DNA of 64,000 nucleotides. Source: Carcharhinus amblyrhynchos (lineage: Eukaryota). Position numbers and translations under genes: made by a program. Position 1 is the stretch's first letter. Each line of letters opens with the position of its first letter. The notes under the pieces were generated by a model, which saw only the letters and a list, made by a program, of their open reading frames with translations, was not told where the DNA came from and did no database searches. Positions 21,201 to 44,820 of this stretch are shown here, in pieces. The stretch lies in assembly GCA_965287045.1 (NCBI GenBank), contig OZ336872.1:109306001-109370000 (forward strand), read 5' to 3'.

Positions 21201-22189
21201 TTCCATCTCAGTCCAAGGGCACTATGAGAAAACACTGCCTCAGTAATAAAGTTTGCTGCCCCAATCTTTTTTTAATCAGGATTGATGGTGCCAAAACCCC
21301 TCAAATATTCAGGACACTGAGGGATTGTGAGCAAAGTAGTCATTTATCTTTTGATATTTAAGGGAAACAAAAGAAAGTATACAATCTTAACTGATAAATA
21401 CATGTGTGATATTGATAAAAAAGCAGAAGCCACTTGTGCAAACCCTTTGCTGTGCTACTTTGCCATAAGCTTATGTTTGCGGGTGCTACATCTTGATGCT
21501 GCCCTCTTTCCCCACTTTGCTGACAGAGGTTTTAGAGGCAGGCTGCTGATTGTGGTGTCTAGTTGGCCCTGATGACCTCTATTTGGCCATTGGGGTCTGA
21601 GCAGCTTCTGCCTGAGAGGGTGCACACAGTAGCATGGCTGGGCATCTCTCAATGAGCACGGACTCTGAAGATGGCAGGATGATTGAAAGAGAGGTGGAGG
21701 AGTTGCTCTCTTTGTCCAGGGTGCCATGAGAGGAGTCAACAAAGATGATAGTTGTCTGCCAATGTGAAGTATGTTTGTACCTTGCTGTTCACCACTGATG
21801 GATGTGCACCTATCTGAGGGACTGGGTACCACATCCATCTACCACACTGGCAGTGACCTCCTCAGGTCATAGCCTCGGCTCACAGGTCTAATTGTATCCA
21901 ACAAAGATCTGAAATATTTATCATCTTTTACGAGTGACTGGTGCAAAATAGGACTTGGGGAAAACTTGCATGTGATCTATTTTTCTAATATAGCTCCTTC
22001 ATTGTAATAATATCTTCATCATATTGATTAAACTCTGTGAGCTTAATGTAGGATTCTGTCGAACAACAGTATAGTGAGGGTGTGCAGGTCTGAGTGCAAC
22101 CCCTGTCATGTTCAAGTCCCTGCTATCTTTCCCCTCTGTTGAGTTCCCCTCATTGTCGAATTGTCATCAGCCACCATCAGTGATTGAAC

Positions 22190-24100
22190 TGTTGGGTGTT
22201 AAAGATGGTGACAGCAGAGATGGTGGGTGCATTAGTTACGCTATTCCAAAATTTCCTGGATTCTGGAAAGGCATGGACTGGAAGCATGCAAATGTGCCCT
22301 TCAAGAAAGGAGAGAGGCAAAAGGTGGGAAACTTTTGACCAGTCAGCTTGGTCTCTGTGGCGGGAGAGTTGCTGGAGTCAATCGTTAAGGAGAAGGTAAC
22401 TGAGCATCTGAAAAAGCAAAGCTCAATTCACTAGTGTCAACAAAGTTTTGTGAAGGGCAAGTCTTGTTTGACAAACCTGCTGGAATTCTTTGAGGATGTA
22501 ACCAGCATGGTAGATAATGGGGATCCTGTGGGTGTGAGCTATTGGGACATCCAGAAGGCATTTGATAAGGTGCTACACAAAAGACAGATTCAGAAGGTTA
22601 GATCCCAAGAGGTTAGGGATAGAATAGTAGCTTGGATTGAGGATTGGCTGACTGATAGAAAGCAGAGGTTTGGGATAAATGGGTCCTACTTTAGTTGCCA
22701 ATCTGTAACTAGTGAGGTCCTACAGGGTTCAGTTCTCGGACTACAACTATTTACAATCTATATCAATGATCTACAAGCAGGGACAGTGTGTAGCATAGCA
22801 TAATTTGCCGATGACACCAAAATAGGTGGGAAGGCTGTGATGAGGAGATAAGAAGTTCACAAATGGATACTAACAGGCGAGGGGAATGGGGAATGGGCCA
22901 GAATCTGCAGATGGAGTTTAATGCGGATAAATCCATAGAATTCCCACAGTGCAGAAGAAGGCCATTCAGCCCGTAGAGTCTGCATCGACCACAATCCCAC
23001 GCAGGTCCTATTCCCGTAACCCCACATATTAACCCTGCTAATCCCCCTGACCCTAAGGTCAATTTAGAATGGCCAATCAACCTAACCCACACATTTTTGG
23101 ACTGTGGGAGGAAACTTGGAGGGAGCCTATGCAGACACAGAGAAAACGTGCAAACTCTACACAGACAGTGGCCCGAGGCCGGAATTGAACCCAGGTCTCT
23201 GGAGCTGTGATGCAGCAGTGGTAACTTCTGTGCCACTGTGCTGCCCCTGTGAGGTGATCCATTTTGGCTGAAAAAAAAATAGGGGAGCAAATTACTATTT
23301 AAATGGGAAACAGATTCAAAAGGCATCTATGCAGAGGCTCTGGGTGTCTTTGTGCATGAACCTTAGAAAGTGGGTATGCAGGTGCAGAATGTTATAAGAA
23401 AGGCAAATGGAATCTTGACTCTTATTGAAGAAAGTCTAGAGTATAAAAGTGAAGAGGTTATTAAAATTATATAAGGCACTGGTGAAACCACACTTGGAAT
23501 ATTGTGTTCAGTTTTGTTGCCTTCTTTGAGGAAAGATGTGGTGGAACTAGAGGTAGTTCAGAAGAGGTTCACTAGATTGATTCCAGATTTGAAGGGGCTG
23601 TCATAGGAGTGGTTGAGTAGCTTGGACTTATACACATGGAGTATAGAAGAATGATGGGGATTTGATTGAGATATATAAAATGCTCAAGGGGATTGATAAA
23701 GTAAAAGTTAACCAAATGCTCCCCCCTTCTAGAACAGCATTGGACAAGAGTTCAAAGTTGTAGAGTAAGAGGGGACAGGTTTAAGACAGCAAAAAGACAA
23801 GGCAATGACCGAAGAAGAAAATTTGAAGTTGAAGGAGCCTCAATTAATTACATATCGCCTCAGCACTTTAGAGCAGACAGAGGAGCAAGTTTACTTCTCA
23901 TAGAGGGTTGTGAAACTATGGAACTCACTACCCCAGATTGCAGTGGATGCAGAACCAATCAATGGATTCAAGAAAGAGTTAGATAAATATTTGATCAAAA
24001 GTGGGATAAAGGGCTATGGGGAAAAGGGAGGTAAGTAGAGTTAGGACGAGACGGAGATCAACCATTATCATATAGAATGGTGGAGGGCCGAATTGCCTAC
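22190..24100 (+). mobile_element. Degenerate CR1 RT, with an HE1-like SINE inserted at 22933-23247 (-)
   Basis: KGKSCLTNLLEFFEDVT, DIQKAFDKV, QGSVLGLQLFTIYINDL. Confidence 0.88.
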
Positions 24101-26442
24101 TCTCGCTTCATTAGACCAGCAAGGAAACATTTTTCCCTTCAAAAGAAAACACCCAGAAGCTTTACTCACCCGCCTTCCTTTACCAATACTCAAATAATTC
24201 TCTGAACAACCTTGAACCATATTTTCCTTTATTACTGATTCTAAAGGAGCATGTATCATCTGGAATAGTTACAGTTTTAATAGACATTTATTTTTCAGGT
24301 GCTCCTTTCCTGTTACTACAACCGGTTTCCTATTTAGTTTCTAACAATCTGCCTGAATAGGTCCTATTTTGTTACAATGGAAACACTCATGCCTCTGAAT
24401 GTTAGTTCCACCTTCCGTACCTTCCCTTCTGAGCTGAGGTGAAATTTCCTGATCATTCCCAACTGTTTTTTCTCTTCCCTAACTGTTTATTTCCTTTCTC
24501 CATCCCACCTTCTATCTTTCTCAGTTTTGAAAGGATGCTGGAAAAAAGACTTGGGTTCTTTAGATCCGTTCAGGATCATCTAGTTCTGTTGCCTGTCTGA
24601 CAGTTTTAACTTTGTGTTCCTCTTCACGAATTCTAATAACGAAAGGAAGTGAAACTTCAAATTCTTCATAAAGAATCACCTCTCTAAGGGCTTTGTATGT
24701 TCCTGCTACGACTGATGCCCATATTCAATGGTCAAAATGACTTTGCTTTACTCTCAGTGATTCGATATAGGTTTGACCAGGCTGTTTTCTTGAAATTTTG
24801 AAAGTTGCCATAGTCCCACCATAACTGCTCTTCCCACGTGCTTTCAGAAATCTACAGCTGGAGCATAGTGTCTGGCCTTATGATTACTTTTTCTAAAACT
24901 CTGGTTAGGTTAGCTTTTGCCTTTCAGTTGGAACCTAGACCAGGAAACTGAAATTCTCCATTCTCTGTGGGTTACTGCACATTCAATTGGGACTACGATG
25001 TTGTGGCCATTACGGAGACATGATTAGAACAGGGACGGGAACGGTTGTTGGCAGTTCTGGGATATAGATGTTTCATCTGGGATATAGATGCCCTGCGGCC
25101 TATGATGTCCTGGGCAAGTGTCCCCTGAAGGACTGGGACCACAAGGCCTCCAACCGGCTTTCCAGCGTCACAGATGTATGAACCGCTCTGTTCATCCCAC
25201 TGCCCTTGAGACGCATCAGGGTACAAAAAGGGAGTCAGAAGCCTTAGTCTCCCTAGCGCAAGGCCCAGCGTGGTCTGCAACCCCTCCTCCTCCCTTGGAG
25301 TGGCAGTGGGCCCATTGGTCGCTCCATGGGACACATTCTGCAGCCCCTCAGCCTTGCCCTGCTGTGAGTGGATCACAATCTCAAGAGCTGCAGCCGTACC
25401 CCGCTGTGTCTTGGCACCGTCCCAGTGGGTCCCCTGAAACCTCTCGAGGCCCTCAGCCATGGCCCTCAGAATCCCAATAAGGCTGTCAAGCGGATAGTGG
25501 GAGACAGCCATCATGGACTTGGGGGAGTGGGAGACACTCCTGAGGCAATGTGTGGGAATGCAATGGGAGGGTGGGAAGGTGGAGGGAGGGTGGTGGAGTG
25601 GGGGGAAGGTGGAGGGAGTGTGGCTCACTGTGCAATCAGGGAAGGGGGTGTGATGATCACTCTGCAATCAGGGAGAGGGGGCCACAAGAGGGAGGGTTTG
25701 TGAGGAGGCACGCTGGGGGTGGGGGTCCATGAAAGAAGGTCGAGAATGTGGGGGAAGAGTCCCAATGTCCATGGCGGGGAGGGGGGTGAGGGAGACTGTG
25801 TCTGCAGGTGTGGTGGTGGGGTGGGAGGGCGCTGCTGTTTTGCTGCTTGCACATGCACAAGTGGAGCCTCTGACCTGAGCTGCCGGCTCTCAGGCCATTT
25901 AAGCCCTACCCCTTCTCCCTACAAGCCAGAAACTGTAGGAAAGATCTTTTTCTTGCTCCAGGAGCATAAGATCACAGATTTGGACTCGCCAAAGAAATCA
26001 AAGTCTTGATAAGACAGTTCAGCTGCAGCTCCTGTTTTCACCCTCATTCTGGATTTTCCTCATGAGATTGCCCAAGATGTATCCCAGCCTTGGGAATAGC
26101 TGGAAAATTTGCATTCTGAGTTACACCTGGACACAATCTACATGCTACAGTTCAGAAATGTAACTATTTCAAAATAGTCGGAACCTGTCTCAATGTGAAT
26201 AAAACCTTTAAGTTTCCACATTGTAATCACAGTTTTAAATAATTTGAATCTGGGCAAATCCTGGATTTCTTTCCCCTGAATTGGGTATGTGGCTGGAGCT
26301 GCTGTTTCCATGTAGCAGACATCAAGAGTGAATTTCCGAAGGGATACAATCAGCGACAACAGGAGAAAGTTCCTCATGCTTGAGTTAAATTACCAGCAAA
26401 ATGAATCAAGCAAATTTGTGCAATTTTGCAGCGAATATTCAC

Positions 26443-29171
26443 TGTCGCTAGGTGTCGTAGATCAAACAGCCCAGACTGCTCGCTGATCCTTTTCATTCCA
26501 GTTTATGTCCGAAACGGCCACTGCCCGTCCTTTTTTGTTTTTCTTCTTCTTGCTAATTCGTTTCTTTTACTTCTCGCCGTCCGGGGGTTCCTAAAACTAG
26601 TCTTTGGGATTTAAAGCTGCGGGTGCATCTATTTCAGTTGAGGAAAGGTTCTGAGAAAATTCCTCTCCTAATAAATCTGCAGTATCCTGGGTGAAATGGA
26701 GTTAGACACTCAGACACATCAGAATATAAGGGAAGTAGCTCCGTGTTATTGTTCATCATTAGAAACCTGATCAACGCTTTTCCAGAAATGTACTTCATAG
26801 AATCATCGTGTAAAAGAGGCCCTTCGGCCCATTGAGTCTCGACTGACACATGAAACTCCGGAGGTCCCATCTTATCCCATTTACCTGCACCTGGCCCATT
26901 ATGAACGTTATGGCATGTCAAGTGCTCATCCAGAAACTTTTAAGGATGTGAGGCAACTTGTCTCTACCACCCTCCCAGGCTGCACATTCCAGACCATCAC
27001 CATCCTCTGGGTAAAAATGTTTTCCTCACATTCCCCCTAAACCTCTTGACCCTCACCCCTTGAGTCTATGTCCCCTCGTGACTGACCCTTCAACTAAAAG
27101 GAATAGCTGCTCTTTATCCATGCCCCTCCTAATCTCATACACCTCAATCAGGTCACCCCTCAGACATCTCTGTTCCAACGAAAACAACCCAAACCAATCA
27201 ACATTCTCTTCATAACTTAAATGTTCCATCCCAGGCAGCACCCTAGTGCAGTTTCTCTGCATCCCCTCCAGTGCAATCAAATCCTTCCTATAATGTGGTA
27301 ACCAGAACTGCACGCTATACTCTAATTGTGGCCTCAAAGATCTGTGCAACTCCAAAATGACTTTGCTGCTTTTGTAATCTATGCCTCAACTGACAAAGGG
27401 AAGTGTTCTATCAGCTTTTTTCACCATCCTACTAACCTTCCTCCTTCAAAGATCTGTGGATAAATACACCAAGGTCCCTTTGTTCCTCAGAATTCTCTAG
27501 TGTCATGCCATGCATTCAATACTTGCTTGTCAAATTACTCCTTCCAAAGAGTACCTCACAATTTTCAGGGTCAAATTCAACATACTATTTATCTGTCCAC
27601 ATGGGAGGGTATCCATCATATCCGTCTATATTTTCTTATAGGCTAAGCCACTCAGCCTCACTGTTAACCAGTCTGCCAATCCTCATGTCATCTGAATCCT
27701 ACCCCCCTCCCCCCAAACATGGTGATTTAAAGTTTATTTATTAGTGTCACAAGTCAGCCTACAATAACACTGCAACAAAATTCTGTTAAAATTCCCTAGT
27801 CGCCACACTCCGGTACCTGTTCGGGTACACTGATGGAGAATTTAACATAACAAATGCACTTGGCCAGCACTTCTTTTGGACTGTGGGAGGAAACTGGAGC
27901 ACCAGGAGAAAACCCACACAGACATGGGGAGAATGTGCACACCCCACACAGACAGACAGACAGAAGTCAGGAATCAAACCTGGCTCCCTGGTGCTGTGAG
28001 GAAGCAGTATGGCCAGGGATACAATTCATCCTTCCCCATATCAATTTGCTCAAGAGCCTTGCAATCTCTTTCCTTGAATTCCATACCTTCATCTTCATTC
28101 TCTTGGATGAAGAGGCCATGAAATATTTACCCAACACTTCACCAATGTCCTCTGACTGCACCCACAGATTGCCCCCCTTAGATCCTAATTGCTCTACTCT
28201 TTCCCCTGATTTTCCTCTTCCCATTGATATACTTTTGGAATATCTTGGGATTTTCCCCTACGTTTACCAGCCATAGCTTTTTCATATCCTCGCTTTTCTT
28301 TGCTAATTGTCTCTTTGCTGGCTACTATATCACAATCCATATGTCAATCATTGCCCTTAACTCATCAATTTTACCTGTAATACTCCTAGTGTTAAAGTAG
28401 AGGCTAGCCACCTTACCTCATATCCTTGAAACTTATACAGCTATACTCTTTCTATGATGCTCTGCCCTTATTCTGCTAATAGTCACCCTACCCCAGCTCA
28501 ATCAGGTTAAACTCCTCCCAACAGCACGAGCAAAATGTCCCGAAAGGATGTTTCAATCTGATATTTTTCAGGCCGCCTTATTTCTACCTGAGTTTGTCAT
28601 CAAATATTAAGAATGAAACGTGAGATTGTAGAGCATCAATTAAACTGAATGCACTTCATTAATCAATACACATTTCAATGTAAAGAAATCCAATTGCAGT
28701 TATAAACAGCACCTGTTTTATATGAATTCTAGCTGGATAGCTTTTTTTGGTGAATGTAACCTTTACAGTTGCATTAGCACAATGCATGCAAAGTATTAGT
28801 TTCACACATCTTTGGACACTAAGGGACAATTTAGCATGGCTAATTCACCTAACCTGCAGATCTTTATACATAGGGACGAAACTGGAGTACCTGGAGGAAA
28901 CTCCACACAGACATGGCGAGAACGTGCAAACTCCACACCATCACCCAAGGCTGAAACCGAACACAGCATGCCGGCACAGTGTGACAGCAATGCTAACCAT
29001 TGTGCCATCATACTGCCTGACAACGCTCCTCATTGCAGATTGCCCATGTCTACTGATCCCCAACAATTCACATCAACTTACTCGCTGTGAGCGAAGCAGG
29101 GGGGTTGCATCCACTCTTGTAGTCAAGAGAGCTAGGAATAGTCCAAAAAGCAAAATCCAAATAATGCTCAT
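26443..29171 (-). pseudogene. Natriuretic peptide (NPPC/CNP-like) pseudogene, copy A; exon 1 CDS 29082-29171, exon 2 26443-26686
   Basis: Exon 1 MSIIWILLFGLFLALLTTRVDATPLLRSQR|gtaagt; exon 2 cag|DTADLLGEEFSQNLSSTEIDAPAALNPKD* with stops at 26597, 26591, 26567, a frameshift, then KRTGSGRFGHKLE*KGSASSLGCLIYDT*. Confidence 0.88.
26794..28550 (-). mobile_element. Degenerate CR1 in intron 1 of NP copy A (with SINE 27727-28010)
   Basis: LRPQLEYSVQFWLPHYRKD; same position as 37473-39750, so inserted before the duplication. Confidence 0.8.
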
Positions 29172-31070
29172 ACTCGTTTGATAAAGTGGTCAATTGTACA
29201 CCTAGATACAATGAAATGAAAATTGGTTAGAGTTCTGTCTGCTGCCTCGAGAGCAAGAATTCTCTGTTGCTTTCCCGGCTGCTTTTCAATCGTTTTATAA
29301 CGTGGAATGATTTCCCAAAATATCATTTGATGATATGAATACATTCCCATTTTATTTATGTTAACACCGTCTCTGTATTTAAATGTTTGCTCTGAAGTTA
29401 AATAAATGTAAGGATGGGGAGGAGTCTGGGAGGATGGAGCTATCCAGGCTGCAACTCGGAGGCAACCTATCCTACTCCCAACCCCAATCTCCCCCACACC
29501 TCGCCCTGGCAATCTTTTGGTCCAGGATGGACCGATTCACTTTTGTGGGCATTGAGCTTGGGAAGGGCTGTCTCATTGCAGCTGCTCCATTGGAATGAGG
29601 CTAACTGGACACCAACAATTCTTCCTATGAATAATTTAACTTGTCTGGAGGCTTGGTCGGAGGTACTTAATGCAGCCCAGCCTCTGGTTGATCCGGTGAC
29701 ATTGGAAGCATTTTCCATGTTAGAAATTGCAGAAACATTCGAAAGTGAATGAGTGCGCGACTAGATTGTCAATACAGGTTCAATCCAACTTCCGCAAATT
29801 ATCGGTAGAAATGATCACGTTGGCATTGTAGCTGGGATAGTCAATCAGTTATGATAAAAGTGCATTTCGCGCAACATTGGTGCTCTTTGTAGCTCAAACC
29901 TCCACCAGCGAGTCAGTCTATTATTGACTAGTTCAGGGCTACGTTATCGGTCTTGTAACTGATTCGTCCCAGTCAGTACATGTTTCAGATGGAAGGGTTT
30001 GGCTGATAAGAAACAATGGAAACTGCAGGCTTCCAACAGGTAAAATCACTCTTTGAGAGGGAGAACTGACTGATGGCGACTTTACCTGATAATCACCACA
30101 TCTCAGGCATGGGGCAAGGTTGAGAAGCCAAGTCTTCATGAATAACCTCAGCCTATACAGGACTCGAACCCATGCTTTTAGCATCGTTCTGCATAAGGTA
30201 ACCAGTTGTCCACACAAATGAGCTGAACAATCCTTGAACGCCATAATGAAAGCTAAGAGAATTGGAGCTTTGTCTTTAATTCAGTGTTGCCACTATTTTT
30301 ACATGCAATTTGCAGCACAGAAATACCAGATGAAGCACCAGATGAACCTTCTCATAACCCTATGTGCATTAATATTTTATTTGCATCTCACTGAGATTTT
30401 ATTGGCTGCTTTTGGGCTAGATGTTGTACAAGAATGGGAAGATGGCCTATTGTACCCAATGGATTCCAGGGTTTCAAATAAAGACACTTCACTAACAGCA
30501 AAATGGCAGGCTACAGGAATTATTGGTGTCAGAGCTAGACAGAGTTGTTCATAAATTAACCAGGAAGGGGTTTCTGTTTTTGGTTGATGATAATATGTTA
30601 ATGGCAACAGATAGCTATATATTTTGAATTATTGTCTTATGTGAAGGTAAGACAATAAACAAGAAAGATTTAGAGGTCTTTTTATATTGTATACCAGAGA
30701 GTACAGACTGTTACTCTGTTTGCTTGACTGCATCAGTACAGGACATACAATAGGACATACCAGGGCAATTTTCCACATTGCCATGTAAGCGCCAATTTGG
30801 TTCCAGTGCAGCTACAACTCTTGCATCGAGCTGACAATCTGGAAAATTACCCAGATATGTTCTGTGGACACAAATTCCAGAAGTGAGGCATTAGCAATCC
30901 CTAGCAAATTTGGAGTGAATGGGAATCTGGAGGGAAATCTCTCGATTGAAGTCATATCTAACTGAGAGGAAGATGGTTGTGGTCTTTGAAGATCAATCAG
31001 CTCAGTTTCAGGATGTCACTACAGGAGTTCCTCAGGGTTATGTACTCAACCCACCTTCAACTGCTTCGTC

Positions 31071-31485
31071 ATAGAATCATAGAAACCCTACTGTGCAGAA
31101 AGAGTCCATTTGGCCCATTGAGTCTGCACTAACCACAATCTTACCCAGGCCCTAATCCATATCCCTATATATTTATTTTTGATAAGCGAGGGGATTAAGG
31201 GTTATGGGGAGAGGGCGGGAAAGTGGAACTGAGCCATGACAGGTCAGCCATGATCTTATTGAATGGCGGGGCAGGCTCAAAGGGCTAGATGGCCTACTCC
31301 TGCTCCTATTTCTTATGTTCTTATGTTCTTATATTTTCCCACTAATTCCTCTAACTGACACAGCTCAAGACACTAAGGGGCAATTTTAGTATGGCCAATC
31401 AACCTAACCCACACATCTTTGGACTGTGGGAGGAAACTGGAACACCTGGAGGAAACCCACTTAGACACGAGGAGAATGTGCAATC
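31071..31485 (-). mobile_element. HE1-like SINE carrying a short young CR1 tail (31176-31331, +) at the unit A/B junction
   Basis: SINE body flanks gataagcgaggggattaaggg..cttatgttcttatgttctt; atattt on both sides of the CR1 piece. Confidence 0.75.
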
Positions 31486-32049
31486 TCTGTGTTTGGCCTC
31501 ATGATTTTTTTAAAAACTCTGGTTAGGTCATCCTTTGCCTTCCAGTTGGAACCTAGACCCGGAAACTGAAATTTCCCATTCCCTGTGGACTATTGTACAT
31601 TCAACCTCCAAATAAGAACATAAGAAAGAAAATAAGAAAATAAATGAACTCATAGCACAGAAATTAAAAAAAATCATTAAATGTTTGGAAGAGTTGGGAT
31701 ATGTAAAAAAACTTCATGTAGCTAATTGTTGGGGAAAGGGTCCAAGTCACCTTACGGGGAACAAGTTTTACTCGATAACCTCCCAATTTTTATTTAAAGC
31801 AGGTTTTACAAGTCCGGCAAGAATCAAAAATTCAACTGGTAAATTTGAAAGATTTATTAACCATTAAAAGGTAGATGGGCAACAAGTTAGAAAAATGAAA
31901 GAACAATGATTCACTTGGCAATAAACAGCAGAAATTAACAGTAATCAACAGTATTAACAAAAAGAGAGGATTAACTTTAACAACTCAAAGCTTTCCTCAA
32001 TGTAGTTTTTAAAAGATATTCCATAGCAGTTCAAAACAGCTTCTGACCA

Positions 32050-33150
32050 TACTGGTTGTCAAATAGTAGGCAGAGATTGGGGGTCAATGGGTGCTGTTCG
32101 GATTGGCGGTTGGTGACTAGTGGAGTGCCTCAGGGGTCGGTTCTGGGGCCTCAGCTATTTACCATTTATATAGATGATCTGGAGGAGGGAACCGAGTGTA
32201 TGGTGTTGAAATTTGCTGATGACACCAAGATTGGGGGAACGGCAAATTGTGCGGAGGGTGTGGAGAGTCTGCAGAAGGATCTAGATAGGCTGGGCGAATG
32301 GGCCAGGAACTGGCAAATGGAATTTAATGTTGGCAAGTGCGAGGTGGTCCACTTTGGTAGGAATAATGGTAGGAAGGATTATTACTTATGTGGAGAAAAA
32401 CTGCAGCAGGCAATGGTGCAGAGAGACCTTGGGGTCCTTGTGCATGAGTCGCAAAAGCCCAGCTTGCAGGTGCAGCAGGTGGTCAGGAAGGCTAATGGGA
32501 TGCTGGCCTTCATAGCGAGGGGGATTGAATATAAAAGTAGGGAGGTCTTGCTGCGGCTGTATAGGGCATTGGTGAGGCCGCAGCCGGAGTACTGTGTGCA
32601 GTTTTGGGCGCCGTACTTACGCAAGGCTATTTTGGCCTTGGAGGGAGTGCAGAGGAGGTTTACTAGGCTGATGCCGGAGTTGAGGGGGTTGAGCTATGAG
32701 GAGAGGCTGAATAAACTAGGCTTGTACTCGTTAGAGTTTAGAAGAATGAGGGGAGATCTCATTGAGACGTATAAGATGACGAATGGGATGGATAGGATAG
32801 AGGTGGAGAGACTCTTCCCACTCAGAAAGGATAGTAGGACTAGGGGGCACAGCCTCAAGATAAAGTTGGGGGGGGGGACGGTTTAGAACGGAGTTGAGGA
32901 AGAACTTCTTCACTCAAAGGGTGGTGAATCTCTGGAATTCTCTGCCCGTTGAAGTGGTGGAGGCTACCTTGCTAAATATTTTTAAGACGCGGGTTGATGG
33001 GTTTTTGATAAGAGAGGGGATTAAGGGTTATGGGGAGAGGGCAGGAAAGTGGAACTGAGCCACGACAGATCAGCCATGATCTTACTGAATGGTGGGGCAG
33101 GCTCGAAGGGCCAGATGGCCTACTCCTGCTCCTATTTCTTATGTTCTTAT
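32050..33150 (+). mobile_element. Young CR1 LINE, 5'-truncated
   Basis: 276-aa RT ORF (VTSGVPQGSVLGPQLFTIYIDDL, KFADDTK); frameshift in a G run near 32870; cttatgttcttat tail. Confidence 0.92.
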
Positions 33151-33179
33151 TGTAATAAATAAGAAGACCTTTCAGACTT

Positions 33180-33530
33180 TTGTGAAATGTAATTTAACAC
33201 ATAACAGCGATTAGGACACATTTTACAAACTTCATATTTCTTTCACTTGCAGTTCACCATCTGTTCAGTTGTTACATAAATAATTTTTATAAATATCTCT
33301 TTTATAAACATATAAATATTTTAAACATAAATACATTTATGCAGAAATGAAATGATCAATTTATAGTCGTGACAATTTACAGGGGCATTAGTTCCTACAA
33401 CAATTTCCTTGGCGTGTTTCTTTCCAGACTCGTACCAGGAGTAATGGCATCATTTTCTTCTTAAACGGTATTTTTTGGGAGACGATGAGAAGCAGAAGAA
33501 ATTTCCGGAGCCCATCATCAACACGTTGTC
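33180..33530 (-). other. Probable non-coding exon 3 (AU-rich 3'UTR) of NP copy B
   Basis: Acceptor tttctattcacag| at 33531-33543; several TATTTAT motifs at ~33270-33340 on minus; matching donor gtgagt at 37136-37141. 3' end not determined. Confidence 0.6.
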
Positions 33531-33548
33531 CTGTGAATAGAAATATAG

Positions 33549-34212
33549 AGGCGATCTGATCAAATACATTCTATGTCCAGGACATTACGCACTTTTGAGT
33601 GACTGACCCCTCCCCTCTCTGATCCCTCCCAATCGCCGGCACCATCTCTTCATGATCGTCATCCCGATCCCGCACCACCTTCGTGATCACCGGCCTGATC
33701 ACACCCCCATCCCACCACCTCTGTGATCACCAGCCCGACCCTCCCACAATCGTCGGTTGATACCTCCTGAAACCACCAGCCTGCCTCCATCCCTTCTGCC
33801 AGCCCCAATGTCCCCCTTCTTCCCCCATTGATTTCTAATGCCGAGTGGGAGGAGGTTACCCCCGCCCCCCTTCCACTGACCCCTACCCCAGGTCGGATGC
33901 CAATTCCCAGGAGGTCTCACCCCTTCATGCACCACCTTCTTTGGTGGGCAGTGCTAGGATGCCCAGTGGGCAGTGCCAGGGTGCCCAGTGGGCAGTGCTA
34001 GGGTGCTGGATAAAAACATTCTGCGCTCATTAATTCAATTCAAAATTCATTTAAATATAGTTTCTATAAGCAATTTCCGGTGCAAGGCTGATCGCACCAG
34101 ATATCTGGGCTGGTAACACCGTGAAAGGTATGAACCTGATTTCTCCGCTTTTACACAATGTTACCAACTCACACCACCCATAGGTAGATGGGCAATGATA
34201 AGATTGCCCCCA
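33549..34212. mobile_element. Harbinger-type MITE with internal short tandem repeats
   Basis: Ends ggcgatct.. / ..aagattgcccc are imperfect inverted repeats; internal gtgggcagtgc repeats at 33944-34005. Confidence 0.5.
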
Positions 34213-34369
34213 TATTGTCAGTGCGGAACAGAGCAAGTGATCAACACAAACTCTGGCAGGAGTAGGCCATTTGGCCCCTCAAGTCTGCTCCGCCATTCAA
34301 TAAGAGCTTTTTGTGGACTCAGCTCTACTTACCCGCCTGCTCTCCATAACCCTTAATTCCTTTACTGTT

Positions 34370-34800
34370 CAAATGAGGCCCACACTGCCACCTGGTCCAT
34401 CGTGGAGGAGTGCATTGGGCTCCTCAAGATGTGGTTTCGGTGCCTGGATCACTCTGGTGGGGTCCTCCAGTACAGCCACCAGAAAGTGTCCCACACAGTG
34501 CTGGTCTGCTGTGTGCTCCACAACTTGGCACAGCAGCCTGGAGACTTTTTGGAGGCGGAGGAGGTGGAGGATGATCAGTCGGATGTCGCTGGGTTGGAGG
34601 TGGCCCAGGAGGATGTGGAGAAGGAGGAGGAGGGGGATGACGAGACCAGTGAGAAACCAGACGATGGAGAGCATGCAGCTGCAGCTTGGGTCTGGCATGC
34701 CAGGATGGTGAGAGAGGCCTCCGTATCGCTTCCAGGTTTGCCAACTAGGGAGCATGTATTACTACAGCTGGAAAGCAACTCTCCCCTCTACACCGATTAA
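34370..34800 (+). mobile_element. Harbinger transposase C-terminal remnant
   Basis: EECIGLLKMWFRCLDHSGGVLQYSHQKVSHTVLVCCVLHNLA followed by an acidic tail. Confidence 0.85.
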
Positions 34801-37160
34801 CCCCAGTCACTCTCCCAAGCCATGGCAACACCAGGGTTCTGGGCCTGGGGAAGGCATGTTAACAGGTTCCTGTCACAGGCAGGAGGGTGATGACAACTGA
34901 CAATGCAGCACAATGTGATGGTGCCTGGTGCAAAATGTCTGGCTCTGCAAACAAACTGGCACCTGGACCCACAACTGGGTGCAAATCATAGACCATGAGC
35001 CACCTTTGGGTGGATGGGGAGAGGGGTATCTTGCACCTGCTTGGTTTCAGGGATGCCATGGCAGCTTCAGTGACTCAATAACTGTGCATGAAACCCAGAA
35101 CTGATGATTCTGAGTGCTTTGAATGTAAGTGCGGTGATGGGTAAACAACATGCGCCTGAATTTGGGGGTTGCAGTAGTGGTGTGCCGAGGGCCCTCCCCC
35201 ACACACACAATGTTCAGAATCCCTCTGGCTTAGCTCAAGGTATGTTCATCACTGCTGGAGGATAATCAGAGACATATTAGTCACAGTTGAGGGGTGCAAT
35301 TCTTGTCGTTAACGGTGCAATAAGTCAACATGCTCACTGTTAATATGTTATAAATAAATAAACTAAACTGTTCATCCCACTGCCATTGAGATGCACCGGG
35401 GACTGGTAGTGGGGGGAATCAGAATGCACAGCGAGAGCCACAGTCCCTCGGGTGGAAGGCCCTCTAAGAATGGCCAAGCTCTGCAGCTCCTCAGCAATGC
35501 CCTGCTGTGAGTGGGCAGCCCTAACCCACTGTATCTCAGCACTGTCCCGTTGGGTTCTCTTCTTGAGGCCTGCAGAATCTTAATCAGGCTGTCAAATGCC
35601 TCAACTCAGCCAGGGCCCTCTGGAACTCCGCCATGTCCTGCTGTGACTCAGCCATCACTTGGACTCTGCCACTCATGGCATTTCTCTGTGCCAGTGACCA
35701 TGCATTGACTGCTACTGCCACCGCCTCTCCCAGGCCACTCTGCCATCCCTTTCCCTGGCTCAACGCACACCCAGGGGGAATAACATATCCCTTCTCTCCT
35801 CCATTGCAGCCAGGAGACATGGCATCTCTCCCTCTGAAAATCTGGGGGCCATTCCTCTGGCATCCATCTTCCTGCCCTGTTTGCCTGTCTGTCCATTCTA
35901 GGGGTTAATATGCAGGTCTCCCTTGTTAAGGCAGTCCAGCTGCAGACAGTTTGGGCGAGTCATGCACCCATTAGAGCACTCCATCAAGATTACACACAGT
36001 TTGCTTTGTTGTACTGAGGGGGAAGCCAAGGCAAGTCTTGCAGGTATACTGATGGGGTGAGGGGGGGGGGTGATGGGGTGAGGGGGGGTGATGGGGTGGT
36101 TGGAATGTGATGCTGTGGTTATGGGGGGGGATGTTGGCGGCAGAGAGACTGTACAAATGCGTGGGGGGAGAGGGGGAAATGGGAGACAGTCATTGTGGAC
36201 ATGGACTGCGAAGGGGGAGTTGAAGCCAGTCACTGGGGACATGAGGGGAGAGGAGATTGCGAGACAGTCATTAGGGACATGGGAGAAATGTGGGAACATT
36301 TGTCAACATGAGAATGTTATCGGCGGGGGGCGGCGGCGTGTAGTTCACAGTGCAGTCAGGCAAGGGGATGTGATGATCACTCTGCAATCACGGTGAGGGA
36401 GGCATGAGAGGCGAGGGTAGTGTGCCGGGGGCGGTCTGTAGAGAGTAGGGGTTGAGAACGTGGCGAAAGATCCCGATGTCCGTCCGGGGGAGGGGGCGAG
36501 GGAGACAGGAGGGGTGGTGGGTTGGGATGGCGCTGCTGTTTTGCTGCTTGTACATGCACAAGTGGAGCCTGAGCTGCCGGCTCTCGGGCCATTTAAGCCC
36601 CGCTCCCTTTCCCTACATGCAAGAAACTGAAGGATTTTTTCCTTGCTCCAGGAGCATAAGATCGCAAATTTGGAGTCGCCAAAGAAATAGATCCGTTGAT
36701 AAGACAGCTCACTGCAGCTCCCATTTTCACTCATTCTGGACTTAGAATTTTTTTCATGAGATTGCCCCCCCACTGTACCCCAGCCTTGGAAATAGCTGGA
36801 AAATTTGGGCTCTGAATTACGCCCGGATACAATCTACATGCTACAGTTCAGAAATTTAGCCATTTCAAAATAGTGGGGACCTGTCTCAATGCGAGTAAAA
36901 CCTTTATGTTTCCACATTGTAATCACAGTTTTAAGTAATTTGAATCTGGACAAATCCTGGATTTCTTTCCCCTGAATTGGGTGGTGTGTAGCTGGAGCTG
37001 CTGTTTCCATGCAGCAGACATCAATTGTGAATCTCTGATGGGATACAATCGGCGACAACAGGAGAAAGTTCCTCATGCTGGAGTTAAATTACCAGCAAAA
37101 TGAATCAGGCAAATTTGTACAATTTTGCAGTGAATACTCACTGTCACTGGGTGTTGTAGA

Positions 37161-37358
37161 TCAAACAGAGCCCAGATTGCTCATTGCTCCTATTTTGTCC
37201 AATTTATTTTTGAAACAGCCACTGCTCGACCTGTTCTTGTCTTTTCGGTTTTTCTTCTTCTCATGGTGGTGGTCCTTGGGATTTAAAGCTGCGGGAGCAT
37301 CTATTTCGGTTGAGGAAAGGTTCTCAGAAAACTCCTCATCTAATAAATCTGCAGTATC
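37161..37358 (-). CDS. Natriuretic-peptide-like precursor copy B, coding exon 2 (pro-region and mature peptide)
   Basis: cag|DTADLLDEEFSENLSSTEIDAPAALNPKDHHHEKKKNRKDKNRSSSGCFKNKLDKIGAMSNLGSV*; resembles CNP-22 GCFGLKLDRIGSMSGLGC; exon continues to donor after 37142. Confidence 0.85.
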   Translation of the reverse strand, partial: DTADLLDEEFSENLSSTEIDAPAALNPKDHHHEKKKNRKDKNRSSSGCFKNKLDKIGAMSNLGSV

Positions 37359-37472
37359 CTGTACAGGGAAGTGCAAATAGACACTCACAGCACATCAGAA
37401 TATAAGGAAAGTAGCTCAATGTCATTGTTTAGCATTAGAAACCTGATCAATGCTTTTCCAGAAATGTACTTC

Positions 37473-39750
37473 ATAGAATCATACAGTGTAAAAGAGGCCC
37501 TTCGGCCCATTGAGTCTCGACTGACATGTGTGAAAGACAAGACCTCCCACCTAATCTCATTTACATGCACTTGGTCCATAGCCTTGAATGTTACCATGTG
37601 CCAAGTTCTCATCCAGGTACTTTTTAAAGAATGTGAGGCAACGCGTCTCTCCCACATTCCCAGGTTATACATTCCAGACCGTCACCACCCTCTGGATAAA
37701 AAATGTTTTCCTCACATTACCTCTAAACTTCCTGTTCCTCATCTTGAACCCATATCCCTTCCTGACTGACCCTTCAGCTAAGGGGGATATCTGCTCCTTA
37801 TCCATTCTGGTCATGCTCCTCATAATCTTGTACCATCAGTCATCTTTTTTCCAATGAAAACAATCCAACCCAATCCAAACTTTCTTCATATCTTAGATGT
37901 TCCATCCCATGCAGCAGCCAGGTGAATCTCCTCTGCACCCACTCCAGTGCAATTGCATTCTTCCTGTAATGTGGCATCCAGACTACATACATTACTTCAA
38001 CTGTGGCATCACCAAAGTTCTGTCCAACTCCAATATGACTTCCCTGCTTTTGTAATCTATTCCATATGCCTTTTTCACCACCCTACTAACATACCTTTCC
38101 TCCTTCAGAGATCTATGGGCAAACACACCAAGATCCCTTTGTTCCATGAACTTTATAGCATCATGCCATTCACTGAATACTTCCTTGTCAAATTTATCCT
38201 TCAGTTGATATATCACCTCACACTTTTCAGGGTTAAATGCCATCTGCACTGATCAGTCCATGTGGGGGTTATCTTTCCCCTCCTGTCTACATCTTCTTGT
38301 AGCCCAAGATATCAGCCTCACAGTTAACCACCCAGCCAATCGTTGAGTCATCTGCAAGCTTATTGATTCTACCCCCCACATAGTCATCAATGTCATTTAT
38401 ATAAATGACAAATAGGTGACCTAACATAGATCCTTGTGGTACCCACCGGATACCTTGTATTACACGTGCATTTGCCTTCTTTGTAAGGCTCCCATGTTGG
38501 ACCTTGTCAAATGTTTTGCTGAAATCTATATTAACGACATCAACTACATTACCCTCACCTACACACCAGGTCACATCCTCATCCTCAAAGAAATTGTATC
38601 AAATTCATTAGGCATGATATTCCTCTGATGAAAGCATGCTGACTATCCCTGATCAAATCCTGCCTCTCTAACTGGAGATAGATGGCCTCCTTCACAATTT
38701 TCTCCAATGGCTTTTTGACCATTGACGTGAGATTCACTGTAGTTTCCTGGCTTATCTCTACAGCCCTTCTTAAATAGCGGAACCACACTAGCTGTTTTCA
38801 GCCCTCTTGTACCTCCCCCATAGCCAGAGAGGGATTAAAAATTTGGATTGGAGCCCACAGCAGCCAGAGACACAATTCATCCTTCTCCATATCAATTTGC
38901 TCAAAACCCTTGCAATCTCTTTCCCTGAATTCCATACTTTCATCTTCATTGTCTTGAGTGAAGAGGCTGTGAAGTATTCATTCAGTACTTTATTAATGTC
39001 CTCTGACTTCACCCACAGATTGCTGCCTTGGTTCCTAATGGGCCCTACTCTTTCCCTGGTTATCCTCTTTCTATTGATACAGTTTCAGAATATCTTGGGA
39101 TGTTCCCTGTTTTCACACACCATAGCTTTCTCATATCCCTCTTCGCTTTCCTAATTGCTTTGTTGAGCTCCAGCTTGCACTTTCAGTACTTCTCTGCTGA
39201 TTTGCTCTTCTTGTACCAAGTAAAACTTTTCCTTCTAATTGTACCCTAATATTTTCAGCCATCCTGGGGGTCTACAATAAACACCTAGCAATGTGACTGC
39301 CCTTTTATAATTCCAAAGCTCTCTCCATGAAGTTTATTCGATGCCCCCTCCAAGGCATCATCTCTCCTTACTAGAGTAATGGACTCCTTAGCTAATTATA
39401 CAATACCTCCTGCTCTTTTACTCCCTCCCCTGTCTCACCTGAAGATTCTATATCCTAGAAAGCTGAGCCGCCAATCCTGCTGCTCCCGAACCACATCTCT
39501 GTGATGGCTACTATATCAAATTCCACACGTCAATCATTCCCCTTTACTCATCAGTTTTACCTGCAATACTTCTAGCGTTAAAGAAGAGGTTATCCAGCCT
39601 TGCCTTATGCTCTTGAAACTTATGCAGCCCTCTGACTTGGAAGTTTTACTGTATGATGTTGTGCGCATATCCTGCAGTCTATGCCTCCATCTCCGCCCAA
39701 TTAGGTTAAACTCCTCCCAATAGCACTAGCAAAATATCCCATAAGGACGT
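37473..39750 (-). mobile_element. Degenerate CR1 in intron 1 of NP copy B
   Basis: VDVVNIDFSKTFDKV, PQGSMLGHLFVIYINDID, KLADDS, QMAFNPEKCEVI. Confidence 0.85.
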
Positions 39751-40361
39751 TTCAACCCAGCATTTTTCAGGCCGTCTTATTTATACCTGAGTTTGTCATC
39801 AAATATTAGGAATGAAACGTGAGATTATAGAGCATCAATTTAAGTGCATTAATCAATACATCATTTCAATATAAAGAAATCCTATAGTAGTTGCAAAATG
39901 CACCTGTTTTGTGTAAATTCCAAATGGTTTTTTTTGTAAATATAACATTTATCAGTTGCATTAGCACAATGCATGCAAATATTATTTTCACTGATATCCA
40001 GATTTTAAAGACAGCAAAACGGTATAAGTTTCTAACAATTACACGGTTACTCAGTTTAGTCAGATTATTAATATGGAGCTAGGTTAAGCTAAACTATGCA
40101 CTCATAGACTCATAGAATGCCGAAGGAGGCCATTCGGTCCACTGAGTTTGCATTGACTGACAGAGTACCTTACCCAGGCCCTCTCCCCTTGCCATGTTCC
40201 TATCATGTCTAATTCACCAAATCTGCACATCTTTACACTTGGGGAGGAAATTGGGGAGGAACGGTGAGAGAGCAGTGCGAACCACAATAATGACAATAAT
40301 GCTAAGCATTGTGCCAACATGCTGCCCATTCTACTGATCCCACCAACTCACATCAATTTAC

Positions 40362-40451
40362 TTGCTTTGAGCGAAGCAGGTAGTTTGCATCCGCCCTTGT
40401 GGTCAAGAGAGCTATGAATAGTCCAGAAAGCAAAATCCAGAAGACGCTCAT
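40362..40451 (-). CDS. Natriuretic-peptide-like precursor copy B, coding exon 1 (signal peptide)
   Basis: ggaATG..MSVFWILLSGLFIALLTTRADANYLLRSKQ|gtaaat; 90 nt, phase 0, hydrophobic core with A-D-A cleavage motif; joins exon 2 in frame to give 95 aa. Confidence 0.85.
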
Positions 40452-40572
40452 TCCTGTTTGATAAAATGGCCAAATGTGCACCTAGATACAATGAAATGAA
40501 AGTTGGTTAGAGTTCTGTCTGCTGCCTCGAGAGCAAGAGTCCTCTACTGCTTTCCCGGCTGCTTTTCAATCA

Positions 40573-40600
40573 TTTTATAACGTGGAATGACGTCAGCGGG
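40573..40600 (-). promoter_or_regulatory. TATA box and perfect CRE of NP copy B
   Basis: Minus strand cccgcTGACGTCAttccacgtTATAAAA (CRE 40588-40595, TATA 40573-40579), about 120 nt upstream of the ATG. Confidence 0.8.
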
Positions 40601-42514
40601 CGTCTGTTTTGGAACTTATTAAGCTGTAACTCAGTTGCAGCGAGAACAATGTGGAAGATCTGCACGATACAAATCTGGTTCCAAATTATTTGTTTAATAT
40701 CCGGGGATATTTGGTGCAATCTCTATTCTTTGTACAACTACCATTAAAACATTCGCGTAATTCAGTGATGGCCTTAAATACCATAGTAAGTGTATTTTAT
40801 CTTAGTTATAGGATTAATCCTTTGACGTCTATTGATGTATGTATGTAACACTTTGAACTCAGATTTACAGTTTAGATGTGAAAACACTCGGAGAGCAGAA
40901 TGGGTGCACAACTATCCGAGAAAAACGTAAATATCTGCACTTTTCACAAAATTAACAACGTACACAATCAGCAACTTAGCTGAATAGTTCATAAGTACAA
41001 ATGTATTATTCCACATTGAAATCTTCAACGAATAAAACTGGAAGCAATCCATCATATCTCGAAGATTGTCTATTTTAATAGAAGAATTCGCTTTATTCGT
41101 TAACTTCAGTAAAATCTGCAAATCTTAGCTTTTGAGAAAACAAAATTGTACAATTCTGTTTCACACCACTTTGGGAATGTGAGATATTACTGAACAAACA
41201 TGCAGATATCTTTAATACATGTTGTCAGAGATAAGCTAAAATAATGCAGCACTGCAAATCCCTGTGTCAGTTAATGCCATGCTTAGGGGGAATTAGATAT
41301 AGTGTTTGGGTCATTTCTTTGCTTCAGTTCCAACAGAACAACTATGAGAATTGGGAACTGGCATTGTAACTATATAAGAGAAGCATTAACTCACTTAATA
41401 AAGCAACAAATAATTATATGTAAATGTTCCCAAAATATCATTTGATGATATGAATGCTTCCCCGTTTTATTTGCATTAACACCGTCTCTGTATTTAAATG
41501 CCCGCTCTGAAGTTAAATGTAAGGATGGGGAGGAGTCTGGGGAAGGTGAGGATAGATATCCAGGCTGCAAACCATAGGCAACCTATTCCATCCAACACCC
41601 CCAAACTCCCCCGCACCCTCACCCTGGCAATCTTTGGACCAGGATGGACTATTTCAATTTTGTGGGTGTAGAGTTTTTGGAAGGGCTGTCTCATTGCAGT
41701 TCCCGTCGGAATGAGGCTAGCCGGACACCAACACTTCTTCAGTCTTCCTATGAATAATTTAACTTGTCTGGAGGCTTGGTCGGGGGTACCTAATGCAGCC
41801 CAGCCTCTGGTTGAACCGGTGACATTGGAAGCATTTTCCATGTTAGAAATTGCAGAAACATTTGAGAGCGAATGAATGCATGATTAGATTGTCAATACGG
41901 AATTAATCCAATTTCTGCAAACTATCGGTAAAAATGATCATGTTGACATTGTAACTGGGATAATCAGGTGTGAACAAAAACTCATTTCACACAAACATTT
42001 TACAAAATCTATTTGTACAATCTGAAAATATTTACGTAGTTTTAAATGCGCTGTGTATCGGAATCTGAACAAATGTGAATGACCTGCTCTACACGTTACA
42101 TCTTGATTTTCAATGCACTTGTAACGCTTCATCTGCATTGGATTCCTATGTTGAGAGTCGATTGTAGTCAGTGCTAAGCAATCGCAAACTTTAACATTTC
42201 TGACAGGTTTTCATTTTCACTTGATTTCATTTGTTGTCCCTCCTGCATTATTGTTGTAGTAATTGCTTTCCCCGATTTATTACCAGTGAAACACTAATCC
42301 ATTGATTGGTCAGCTCCAGGCTTGCTAGCCATCATAGCCTCCATAACAGGCAGACTTCATGCCACAAAGCTCTGTTCCCTGTTCTTCTTTCCATTCAGTG
42401 TAATTTATTCACTCTACATTGGAGATACTAGATGCAGAAGAGATATTCCACTTTGAGGAAGGTCTCCTTCCAGTCTTCAACTGCCCTCAGTCTGACCTCT
42501 GGCTCCTACTGTGC

Positions 42515-42703
42515 GAATCTTTACACCTACTTTCTTGCATCTCTGTAAAAACTCGATGTGTGTGTCAATATGCGCAACCTTCTTGGAGATCCTCTCCACT
42601 TGGATCCGGCAGTTTGCGGTGTCGATAGTAGTCATGATGACATCTATCAACACAGACATCAAGTTTTTACAGAGATGCAAGAAAGTAGGTGTAAAGGTTT
42701 GCA
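42515..42703 (-). mobile_element. Penelope-derived fold-back insertion inside an older Penelope GIY-YIG remnant
   Basis: ~58-bp inverted arms (42512-42570 / 42645-42703); TSD tcctactgtgc at 42504-42514 and 42704-42714; encodes MTTIDTANCRIQVERISKK, resembling a PLE ORF start. Confidence 0.7.
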
Positions 42704-43959
42704 TCCTACTGTGCTCCAGTGAAACGCAACATAAGGCTCAGGGAACAGCATTTCATTTTTCCATTGGGAACTGTACAGCCTTCTAAACCCAACGTTGAGG
42801 TCAATCATTTCACACCTTAATTTCGTGCCCCCCCCCCCTGCCCAATTTCTTCCCATTTGTTTGATTGAATTAGTTGGATTCACTGAGCTACGAGATGAAC
42901 TGATTTATCCAATTTTGATGGTGACTAAGCCTGAGTTGAGTCAGTTTATGGACTGGAGAGACAATCTCAGTTAAAAACCCCTGACATGGCCCTACGTTTT
43001 AATATTATTCTTACATTTTTGCCATTCACACCTCAACAGAAATACAGATAGATGAAGCTAGTTATATCCTCTCTGGCTTTGTGTTGTGAGAAGTATAGTC
43101 TGCAGTTGCCTACCGCATTTCACAGAATTTTCCTTTGCGGAAGCCTTTTACAAGTCACCTGCTGAGGATAAATATGGATTAGAAAGGCCAAACATGTCAG
43201 TTCATCCCCCAAATAGGCGTTGCATACTCTGAATGCAACATCTATTTTTTTTTAATGATTTCAGTTTAAACAATTGAACAGTTTTCGCTTCCACAACTCA
43301 GCTGTGGTATCATTCCAAACATTAATCATTGCTATATTTTCCGTGATTCGAGATAATGCAGAAGGGACATGTACTTAATTCGTAAAATGCATGACATGCG
43401 TTGCTTGATATTATCACCCCAAATGACAAAGTACCCATAGTCCTGATCAACACTATACTCACAAGAGTGATATTTTGAATTCTTTGACTTGTTAGTTGCT
43501 AAGCAAAAAGCATTATCCAATTGAATTGATATCTGTTGTAATTGTGAGTAAAAAGTCCATCAACTGACCAGAGGAGGGGCCCACAATCAGTCTGTGTGGC
43601 AGAGGGGGATAAGGGGGTTAGTAACGTTGTAAGGGAAGGGCAATATCTGTGGGGGTCAGGGGCAGGAATTATCTGGCCTGGGAGAGATGTGGTGGGGAGC
43701 AGCATTCTATCACATCATCTGTGCATGCGCAATTGGAGGCGTCAATCAGAGCTGCAGGAATTTGGGCATGTTAAGCCCCGCCCACAGGCTTGTGCAGCGT
43801 GATTCAGAATCACTAATATTTTTGCATGCAGAGCGCAAATGGGAGTGCCTCAGAACAGGTCTAAAAGCCAGAACTGAAACATTCCCAGTTTCAAGACTGC
43901 CCAGCACTTAGAATCAAAATGGTAAAATAGGGCCCATTGTGTACAGGAGCAGGATTTTC

Positions 43960-44820
43960 TGTGAGGTATATCTATGGTTAGATTTAATGGACAGCATGGA
44001 TATGACTTGTGCTACCATTCTGAGAACACAGTGGACGGGGTTGTGATATGCCCAGTAGATGTGCTCAGGTACACAGACAGGATGATTCAGGAAATAGTCT
44101 GTATTACAATGAGGGCACTGGATGAGAATCAGCCAGCCACATTAAATGTATTTGATCAAAGTTTTTCCTAGCTTGGCAGCTTTTCCCTGCTTTTATGCAC
44201 TGCCTTCTGCTGGGAATTGGGAGACAGCTAACTGGATTATGGTTCTTCTTGCCAACTAGCTGTGCTGAATAATTGCCTATGTATTTTTAATCATAAACAA
44301 GAAATATTTAACAGCATTTCCTATTGCGTAGCAGGGGTACCGACTGTTATTCTATTTGTTTGACTGCATCAGTACAGGACATACCAAGGCAATTTTCCAC
44401 ATTGCCATATAAGTGCTAATTCGGTTCCAGTACAGCTACAACTTCTGCCTCTAGCTGGCAATCTGGAAAATTACCCAGGTATGTCCTGCAGACACAAACT
44501 CCGGAGGTGAGGTAACAGTGACATCAAGGCAGTGTTTGACTGAGCATTTGACAAAGGCATCAAGGAGCCCTTGCAAAATTGGAGTGAATGAGAATCAAGG
44601 GGAAACTCTCCTTAAGTTGGAGCTGTGTTGGATGAATACCATGATGTGCACTAAACTATCAAGGTTTGTTGCAAGGGCTCTGAGGCCATTAGCTGACAGA
44701 AAATATTGGAAGGCCTCTGAATGGTACACATGGCTGACATTTTACAGTCTGCCATGGCTAAAGGGGATATTTCCTCATGAATATCTAGAGAATTGGGTGG
44801 CCATTCTCTGGGTTTCTATC
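43960..44820 (+). mobile_element. CACTA/EnSpm-like transposase fragments
   Basis: RFNGQHGYDLCYH (cf. FNGxYGCxxC) and RPLADRKYWKASEWYTWLTFYSLPWLKG (cf. WKASE..WLLFYSLP). Confidence 0.6.

Follow-up and report, generated by a model that had tools for sequence, protein, structure and literature searches.

Whether a copy of a peptide-hormone gene that has kept its reading frame and lost the ring of its hormone is a living gene or a decaying one is the question raised by the NPPC locus of the carcharhiniform shark Carcharhinus amblyrhynchos. The window, meaning the whole stretch of 64,000 nucleotides that was analysed (G000:C3:109306001-109370000, in an assembly of 2.92 Gb; coordinates without the C3 prefix are window positions), contains two units derived from NPPC, the gene that encodes C-type natriuretic peptide (CNP; here the CNP4 type), in sharks the classic hormone of heart and salt secretion. 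When the genome was searched at the level of protein, family and DNA, four NPPC-derived loci came out, all on C3: the canonical gene, N, and the disabled copy A', both on the plus strand and left of the window, and copies A (29171-26443) and B (40451-33149), both on the minus strand and within it. Copy B has an open frame of 95 codons and an open ring; the reading preferred here, with a probability of about 0.5, is that it is a formerly functional CNP4 paralogue that is now decaying.

Structure of copy B and the lost ring

Copies A and B have the same orientation, as the initial annotation had described them, and lie on the minus strand, with blocks that are 78-88% alike (25615-29843 against 36335-41966); each begins with the 90-nt, phase-0 exon it had recognized, coding for a signal-peptide-like 30-mer and followed by a GT donor (40451-40362 in B, 29171-29082 in A). 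The TATA box, cyclic AMP response element (CRE) and third exon that it had assigned to B are likewise borne out by comparison with N. The features of copy B are the following.

40623..41377, minus strand: distal promoter block, 92% identical to that of N and missing from A (block comparison)
40573..40595, minus strand: CRE (40595-40588) and TATA box (40579-40573), spaced as in N (promoter comparison)
40362..40451, minus strand: coding part of exon 1, 30 codons, open frame, predicted signal peptide
37142..37358, minus strand: exon 2, 65 codons, open frame with stop at 37163-37161, Pfam ANP match
33149..33530, minus strand: exon 3 (3' untranslated region), homologous to exon 3 of N, within a young inverted repeat

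The splice sites of B are canonical (GT/AG), and its exon 1 donor, which has lost the G at +5, matches the consensus at 7 of 9 positions, as does that of N. On inspection, the exon 1 peptide has a hydrophobic core and an Ala-x-Ala end resembling N, with a peak 11-residue hydropathy of 2.85 (3.12 in N). Exon 2 reaches 32.1 bits on the Pfam ANP family (cut-off 27), which is the sole match in a scan at E up to 1, without Musclin (PF11037); together with the exon homology and the tree described below, this match indicates descent from NPPC. Before the ring, B has 66 nt fewer than N, with the frame preserved, and the lost stretch includes the furin-type RxxR site, which is Arg-Phe-Ser-Arg in N; furin processes CNP (PMC9219612). 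The C-terminal region of N is, by inspection, as basic as that of B, which speaks against a new function of B through higher cationic charge.

The first ring cysteine of B lies at 37217-37215, and 12 of the first 16 ring positions equal those of N, the changes being Gly3 to Lys, Arg4 to Asn, Arg8 to Lys and Gly14 to Asn, with the central residues Phe, Leu, Asp, Ile and Gly kept. A 2-nt insertion at about 37168-37169, after the last Gly, puts the closing cysteine out of frame, and the peptide ends Gly-Ser-Val-stop, without a 17-residue ring closed by two cysteines. The predicted product of B is not a ring-forming natriuretic peptide and should not be filed as one, because the closed ring that defines the family is absent. 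Of the natriuretic-peptide-like ring announced for the second exon of each unit, the family match in B stands, and a closed ring is found in neither. The peptide of B is also predicted not to activate NPR-B or to act as a CNP agonist, because GC-B activity is stated to depend on the disulfide ring (PMC10454581). Among annotated proteins none resembles B: the exon 2 query gave 1 candidate at 35-114 aa and 31 above 114 aa, none of them scored, and a comparison with 1.84 billion representatives returned Carcharodon CNP4 only and no B-like entry, negatives that show only the absence of B-like annotation in those databases.

The insertion in independent sequencing runs

A 281-base stretch of the B exon is present in 19 of 24 listed runs (9 studies, several organism labels), and four of these runs, X1, X3, X10 and X18, each of them represented by contigs, were compared in detail. 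Contigs of X1, X10 and X18, from three studies and with three organism labels, bridge the insertion with 0 gaps (6, 10 and 6 other letters differ, respectively; the bridging contig of X1 has a depth of 2 only), and the contig of X3, also with 0 gaps, ends 9 letters past it. Because the bridging contigs share the insertion without a gap, the open ring of B is real and older than the split of about 3.7% measured in the X10 flanks (13/350); an assembly error as the source of the missing cysteine is ruled out by these three independent runs. The age of the insertion corresponds to at least about the last fifth of the B branch.

Among the differences listed, the coding changes of B across runs are Asn4 to Thr, Met12 to Ile (X3, X18), Ser13 to Asn and stop to Arg (X10), all four of them (4/4) non-synonymous or stop-loss; the stop is lost in 1 of the 4 runs as listed, and the exon 2 donor of X10 carries a change at +5 (37137). 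The first ring cysteine is kept in all listed contigs. No RNA holder of B was found among the 24 listed runs and no splice joint in the four contig runs, which is evidence neither way on its transcription. For X10 and X3, no A-type contig appears among the matches listed (88% threshold, 79% of X10 read), which does not amount to absence.

The canonical gene and the age of the copies

Some 30 kb to the left of the window, between COPS7B and DIS3L2, lies gene N, an NPPC of three exons that is intact and on the plus strand, with its ATG at C3:109274795, exon 2 at 109275397 and a closed 17-residue ring followed directly by the stop, without a tail. It is convergent with COPS7B, as is human NPPC, and the C-terminal exon of DIS3L2 lies beyond it on the minus strand (C3:109019135). 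A protein search with exon 2 of N returned 8 proteins from 8 candidates, all of them shark, the top one from Mustelus asterias (88%; P0001, exon 2), and the sharks returned have one full-length CNP4 entry each. Because of these neighbours and of the shark CNP4 matches of its exon 2, N is assigned as the NPPC/CNP4 orthologue. Human COPS7B, NPPC and DIS3L2 are likewise neighbours (PMC6836550). B as the sole NPPC orthologue is ruled out by the genome search, the Mustelus match and the DIS3L2 synteny, since N holds that place. Two coding exons of COPS7B lie in the window, to the right of the copies, the side on which the initial annotation had placed that gene.

55034..55138, minus strand: penultimate coding exon of COPS7B (Pfam PF18392 CSN7a_helixI, E 1.1e-10)
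53997..54155, minus strand: last coding exon of COPS7B, 52 codons and stop, open frame after an AG acceptor

The latter exon has no Pfam match, and its product presumably corresponds to the COPS7B C-terminus. The finding of N, convergent with COPS7B and followed by DIS3L2, thus completes the COPS7B-NPPC-DIS3L2 trio in this genome and agrees with the earlier suspicion that the two copies are inverted daughters of a canonical NPPC further left.

In a tree of 10 rows and 74 columns, A and B are each other's closest relatives (82/89), within a carcharhiniform CNP4 clade that also includes N, Mustelus and Scyliorhinus (98/95) and in which the tree does not settle where N stands relative to Mustelus; the grouping with natriuretic peptides that had been expected of the copies is therefore recovered, and B has paralogs. 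Non-coding divergence is 15.3% between B and A' (3,035 columns) and about 12-20% between N and either of them (intron and distal blocks), and because all these values fall at about 12-20%, the first duplications are, on sequence divergence, old and close in time. At 7 columns of the alignment, A and B agree with each other and not with N; at 3 of these 7, N equals Mustelus, and A and B retain the residue of the catshark or the outgroup in columns 34 and 53 and have one of their own in column 32. This pattern weakly hints that the daughter line split off before the Mustelus line.

Closed-ring CNP genes number four in the genome, three of them off C3: two on C30, which stand in tandem 8.8 kb apart (G000:C30:18295900-18304779) and are presumably CNP3-like, and one on the unplaced contig C471 (G000:C471:23011-23097), surrounded by 32-bp satellite repeats. 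Because of these four closed-ring genes, B is dispensable on its face.

Copy A and its twin

Copy A, which had been taken for the second member of a tandem gene pair, has the following features.

29293..29299, minus strand: TATA box, with the CRE deleted (promoter comparison)
29082..29171, minus strand: exon 1, 30 codons, intact open frame, 90 nt, phase 0, GT donor
26443..26686, minus strand: exon 2, pseudogene with disabling lesions

Its exon 2 has a TAG at 26599-26597 (codon 30 of the exon) and a TGA at 26495, inside the ring, the first ring cysteine is replaced by Arg at 26516, and the ring is out of frame, at 170 nt from the acceptor against 207 in N (net -37 nt before the ring). In comparison with N and B, copy A is also without exon 3, CRE and distal promoter block. 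Over 246 nt of exon 2, A and A' do not differ, and the exon 3 of A' is still present, decayed. Both are pseudogenes of the duplicated, unprocessed kind, with introns kept and disabling stops and a frameshift. A second functional gene is ruled out by the stops, frameshift and loss of the first cysteine, and the proposed tandem pair yielding an atypical natriuretic peptide of 95 residues does not hold, A being dead and B lacking the second ring cysteine.

After the closing cysteine codon, the stop TAG of N corresponds to TTG in A (26468-26448) and in the B of this genome (37166-37145), and A read in the ring frame runs five residues past the ring; the daughters may stem from a CNP that carried a short tail like that of ANP/BNP. 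The B of X10 has an N-like letter at 37163, which blurs the order of events for this change of tail and stop.

Selection on copy B and its possible fates

The evidence on selection is split. In 222 nt, B has 3 synonymous changes of its own and 13 that are non-synonymous, and A has 5 and 11, with the same total (16); the changes of B fit neutrality (p 1.0) and reject an omega of 0.3 (p 0.011). In proximal promoter and exon 1, B differs from N by 7.3% and the dead A' by 6.9%, and because the two divergences are equal, no selection on B need be invoked for the likeness of its promoter; the conservation of the promoter was rejected on this ground as a proof of selection, dead A' being equally close to N in the proximal part.

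Several observations weigh against B as a decaying paralogue. In neutral simulations (20,000 runs per setting, with transition and deletion shares assumed), start, splice sites and frame last through the whole branch in 2.3% of runs, through half of it in 12% and through its last quarter in 32%. Exon 2 of X10 differs at 2/198 positions and its flanks at 13/350 (one-sided p 0.049, post hoc), B keeps 12/16 ring residues against 8/16 in A, and it retains the set of CRE, TATA box and distal promoter block lost from A, which keeps a TATA. The cross-run likelihood, based on count and kind of change, is 0.006 for omega of both 1 and 0.2 and 0.017 (2.8 times better) for omega 0.5; this evidence rests on the differences listed, and most B-type differences of X1 and X18 are outside these. 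An earlier functional phase followed by relaxation best fits both halves of the evidence.

The possibility that B was dead from birth, like A, and owes its open frame to luck appears improbable, since neutral-like substitutions across the whole branch and a promoter and exon 1 divergence equal to that of a pseudogene would suit it, whereas the whole-branch survival probability of 2.3%, the net loss of 66 nt in frame and the comparison of B with A over the first 28 codons of exon 2 (pN, the non-synonymous proportion, 0.038 and pS, the synonymous one, 0.237; small counts) speak against it. For a paralogue that functioned first and decays now, the history would start with an inverted duplication of N beside the 3' end of COPS7B, probably no later than about the time at which the Mustelus line split off, and continue with the duplication of that daughter into A and B and the death of A; selection would have kept the frame of B for a time, while its pro-region lost 22 residues and the furin-type RxxR; the 2-nt insertion would have opened the ring before the sampled species split, and B would have drifted since. 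Copy A was later recopied (A/A') in a 99%-identical inverted repeat, which also carries the present exon 3 of B.

Should the CRE/TATA promoter still drive transcription of B, the product would be a secreted propeptide of about 73 residues, and cleavage at the Lys/Arg cluster would release a peptide of about 22 residues with one cysteine. Such a peptide might bind NPR-C without activating NPR-A or NPR-B and so raise local CNP, in the manner of osteocrin/musclin and arising independently from CNP4. That B is a living gene of this kind is a tentative possibility. It would accord with the maintenance of frame, signal peptide, promoter and splice sites while its sister A decayed, with an insertion found under several organism labels whose flanking DNA differs by up to about 3.7%, with the gap-free exon 2 contigs, with the deficit of exon changes in X10 (p 0.049) and with the conserved ring core of Phe, Leu, Asp, Ile and Gly; osteocrin itself binds NPR-C, and not NPR-A or NPR-B, through natriuretic-peptide-like motifs (PMC11291853). 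Against it stand the replacement by Lys of a conserved Arg and a conserved Gly of the ring, the Met12 to Ile, Ser13 to Asn and stop-loss changes of close relatives, the neutral-like rate on the B branch, the loss of the furin-type site and an exon 3 that was apparently replaced recently and adjoins a long interspersed nuclear element (LINE). The contacts described for NPR-C are Phe +1, Arg +7 and Met +11 (PMC6878697); in B, Phe is retained, Lys stands in place of Arg, and Met is retained here and replaced by Ile in X3 and X18, and the idea of a decoy is tempered because these contacts are only partly kept. The closest solved chain is the CNP bound in 1JDP (E 0.02). By analogy with osteocrin, a carcharhiniform CNP4 duplicate could, though we doubt it, have become a ringless NPR-C decoy that, under the same CRE/TATA promoter, would be co-expressed with CNP4 and would amplify it.

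A last proposal concerns the free cysteine of B, which could form a disulfide homodimer or pair with a cysteine in a read-through tail (X10 lineage), giving a constrained ligand with a new receptor specificity. The constancy of the first cysteine is in line with it, as is a Cys-Cys pair before the stop when the exon 2 frame of B is extended into exon 3; nevertheless, it is very unlikely, in view of a stop lost in 1/4 runs as listed, the +5 change in the exon 2 donor of X10, a basis for the X10 tail that excludes its exon 3 and the lack of any precedent found.

The inverted repeat and the third exon of copy B

Beyond what the initial annotation had reported, the locus has four copies and a large inverted repeat, with the following features in the window.

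7275..33547, minus strand: right arm of the inverted repeat of about 26-29 kb (self-comparison)
6764..7258, minus strand: homologue (90%) of the sequence directly 3' of exon 3 of N, just past the arm
10615..18460, minus strand: decayed copy of the COPS7B last exon and about 3.8 kb downstream of it (17-25% substitutions, acceptor AG lost, frameshifted), inside the arm

The left arm lies outside the window (G000:C3:109276293-109305289) and carries A' and the canonical exon 3. The arms differ by 262 substitutions in 24,607 aligned bases (1.06%), by a 2.9-kb deletion and by separate LINE insertions. Their 99% identity, with contig evidence taken from outside the repeat junctions, leaves room for an assembly artefact, in which A and A' would be a false duplication of haplotypes; this would touch the copy number and not the nature of B. 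We consider it improbable, given 0 N gaps across 264 kb, two junctions that are not derivable from a simple inversion pair, and the deletion and LINE insertions that distinguish the arms. In addition, the depth of A-type contigs is about double that of B-type contigs (3.8-4.3 against 2.0 in X1, 14.5-20.5 against 7.4 in X18), contig depth not being copy number, and at 28 positions chosen among the listed differences the A-type contigs of X1 and X18 match A and A' in 27/28 and N in 8/28.

The exons 3 of B and N differ by 5 mismatches in 399, whereas their introns are 13-17% different. Such a contrast would be explained if a copy of the N exon 3 and 26 kb with it had been put into the 3' end of B by template switching or conversion between the inverted genes, and the segment at 6764..7258 is likely the original 3' flank of B, parted from it by the inserted arm. 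The hypothetical protein P0008 of Scyliorhinus torazame has an NPPC exon 2 running into a frame like that of B exon 3 (33530-33390) and is probably a mis-modelled CNP4; because its tail matches this frame, the junction of exons 2 and 3 appears to be an old feature. AATAAA or ATTAAA was found neither within about 1.8 kb of the start of N exon 3 (C3:109276300-109278150) nor within 1.2 kb of that of B (33530-31794), and the poly(A) signal of NPPC may be non-canonical here.

In the window arm and the left arm, the decayed COPS7B piece comes after A and not before it, a circular permutation of the order COPS7B-then-B that could come from a circular DNA intermediate or a later rearrangement. Young LINE 3' ends, 93-99% alike and with a short tandem-repeat tail, are found at 3314-3682, 9383-10377, 19926-20480, 31176-31332 and 32053-33150, one of them adjoining B exon 3, where it marks the edge of the repeat arm. 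A near-perfect hairpin at 15920-16091, with 85-nt arms at 99% and a 2-nt loop, resembles a miniature inverted-repeat transposable element and has kin at 57348-57501.

Comparison with known systems and significance

Shark CNP4/NPPC, represented by the 'C-type natriuretic peptide 2-like' protein of Mustelus asterias (P0001) and the 'CNP 4-like' proteins of Scyliorhinus (P0005, P0007), shares with B the three exons, the 30-codon exon 1, CRE and TATA box, an acidic start of the pro-region, a basic cluster and 12/16 ring residues, and with the present locus the COPS7B-NPPC-DIS3L2 neighbourhood. It differs in its 116 residues against 95 in B, which is without the 22-residue stretch with RxxR and the closing cysteine and is inverted relative to N, and in being intact, unlike A and A'.

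Osteocrin is not known to have a closed ring or the ring cysteines. Like B as predicted, it has a natriuretic-peptide-like receptor-binding motif in a secreted precursor, and as B would in the role of a decoy, it competes for NPR-C (PMC11291853), raising natriuretic peptide levels (PMC11291853; PMC9219612). In contrast to osteocrin/musclin, B is derived from NPPC, with a single motif and a single cysteine, matches Pfam ANP and not Musclin, and is described here from its sequence.

The teleost genes cnp4a and cnp4b, which have closed rings, go back to whole-genome duplication and are expressed paralogues, in contrast to the local inverted duplication, pseudogenes and open ring found here. As diverged copies of a duplicated CNP4 (cited in PMC10454581), they are nevertheless comparable with this locus.

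The local expansion of shark NPPC, with one parent, two pseudogenes and one ringless open-frame copy common to related species, is real and apparently undescribed: no shark CNP4 duplication or ringless CNP was found in literature searches directed at the CNP genes of sharks, a weak negative, as much shark natriuretic-peptide work sits in subscription journals. In agreement with the birth-and-death expansion at the CNP4/NPPC locus proposed earlier, with a parent, dead copies and inverted daughters, the locus shows the birth and death of a vertebrate hormone gene as a complete series: the parent, two dead copies and one open-ring, in-frame copy present in several species. If B is dead, what remains is a shark gene family annotated in good resolution and a caution that a match to Pfam ANP is here no hormone; if B is alive, it would mean that a receptor decoy can arise from a hormone gene by a 2-nt insertion.

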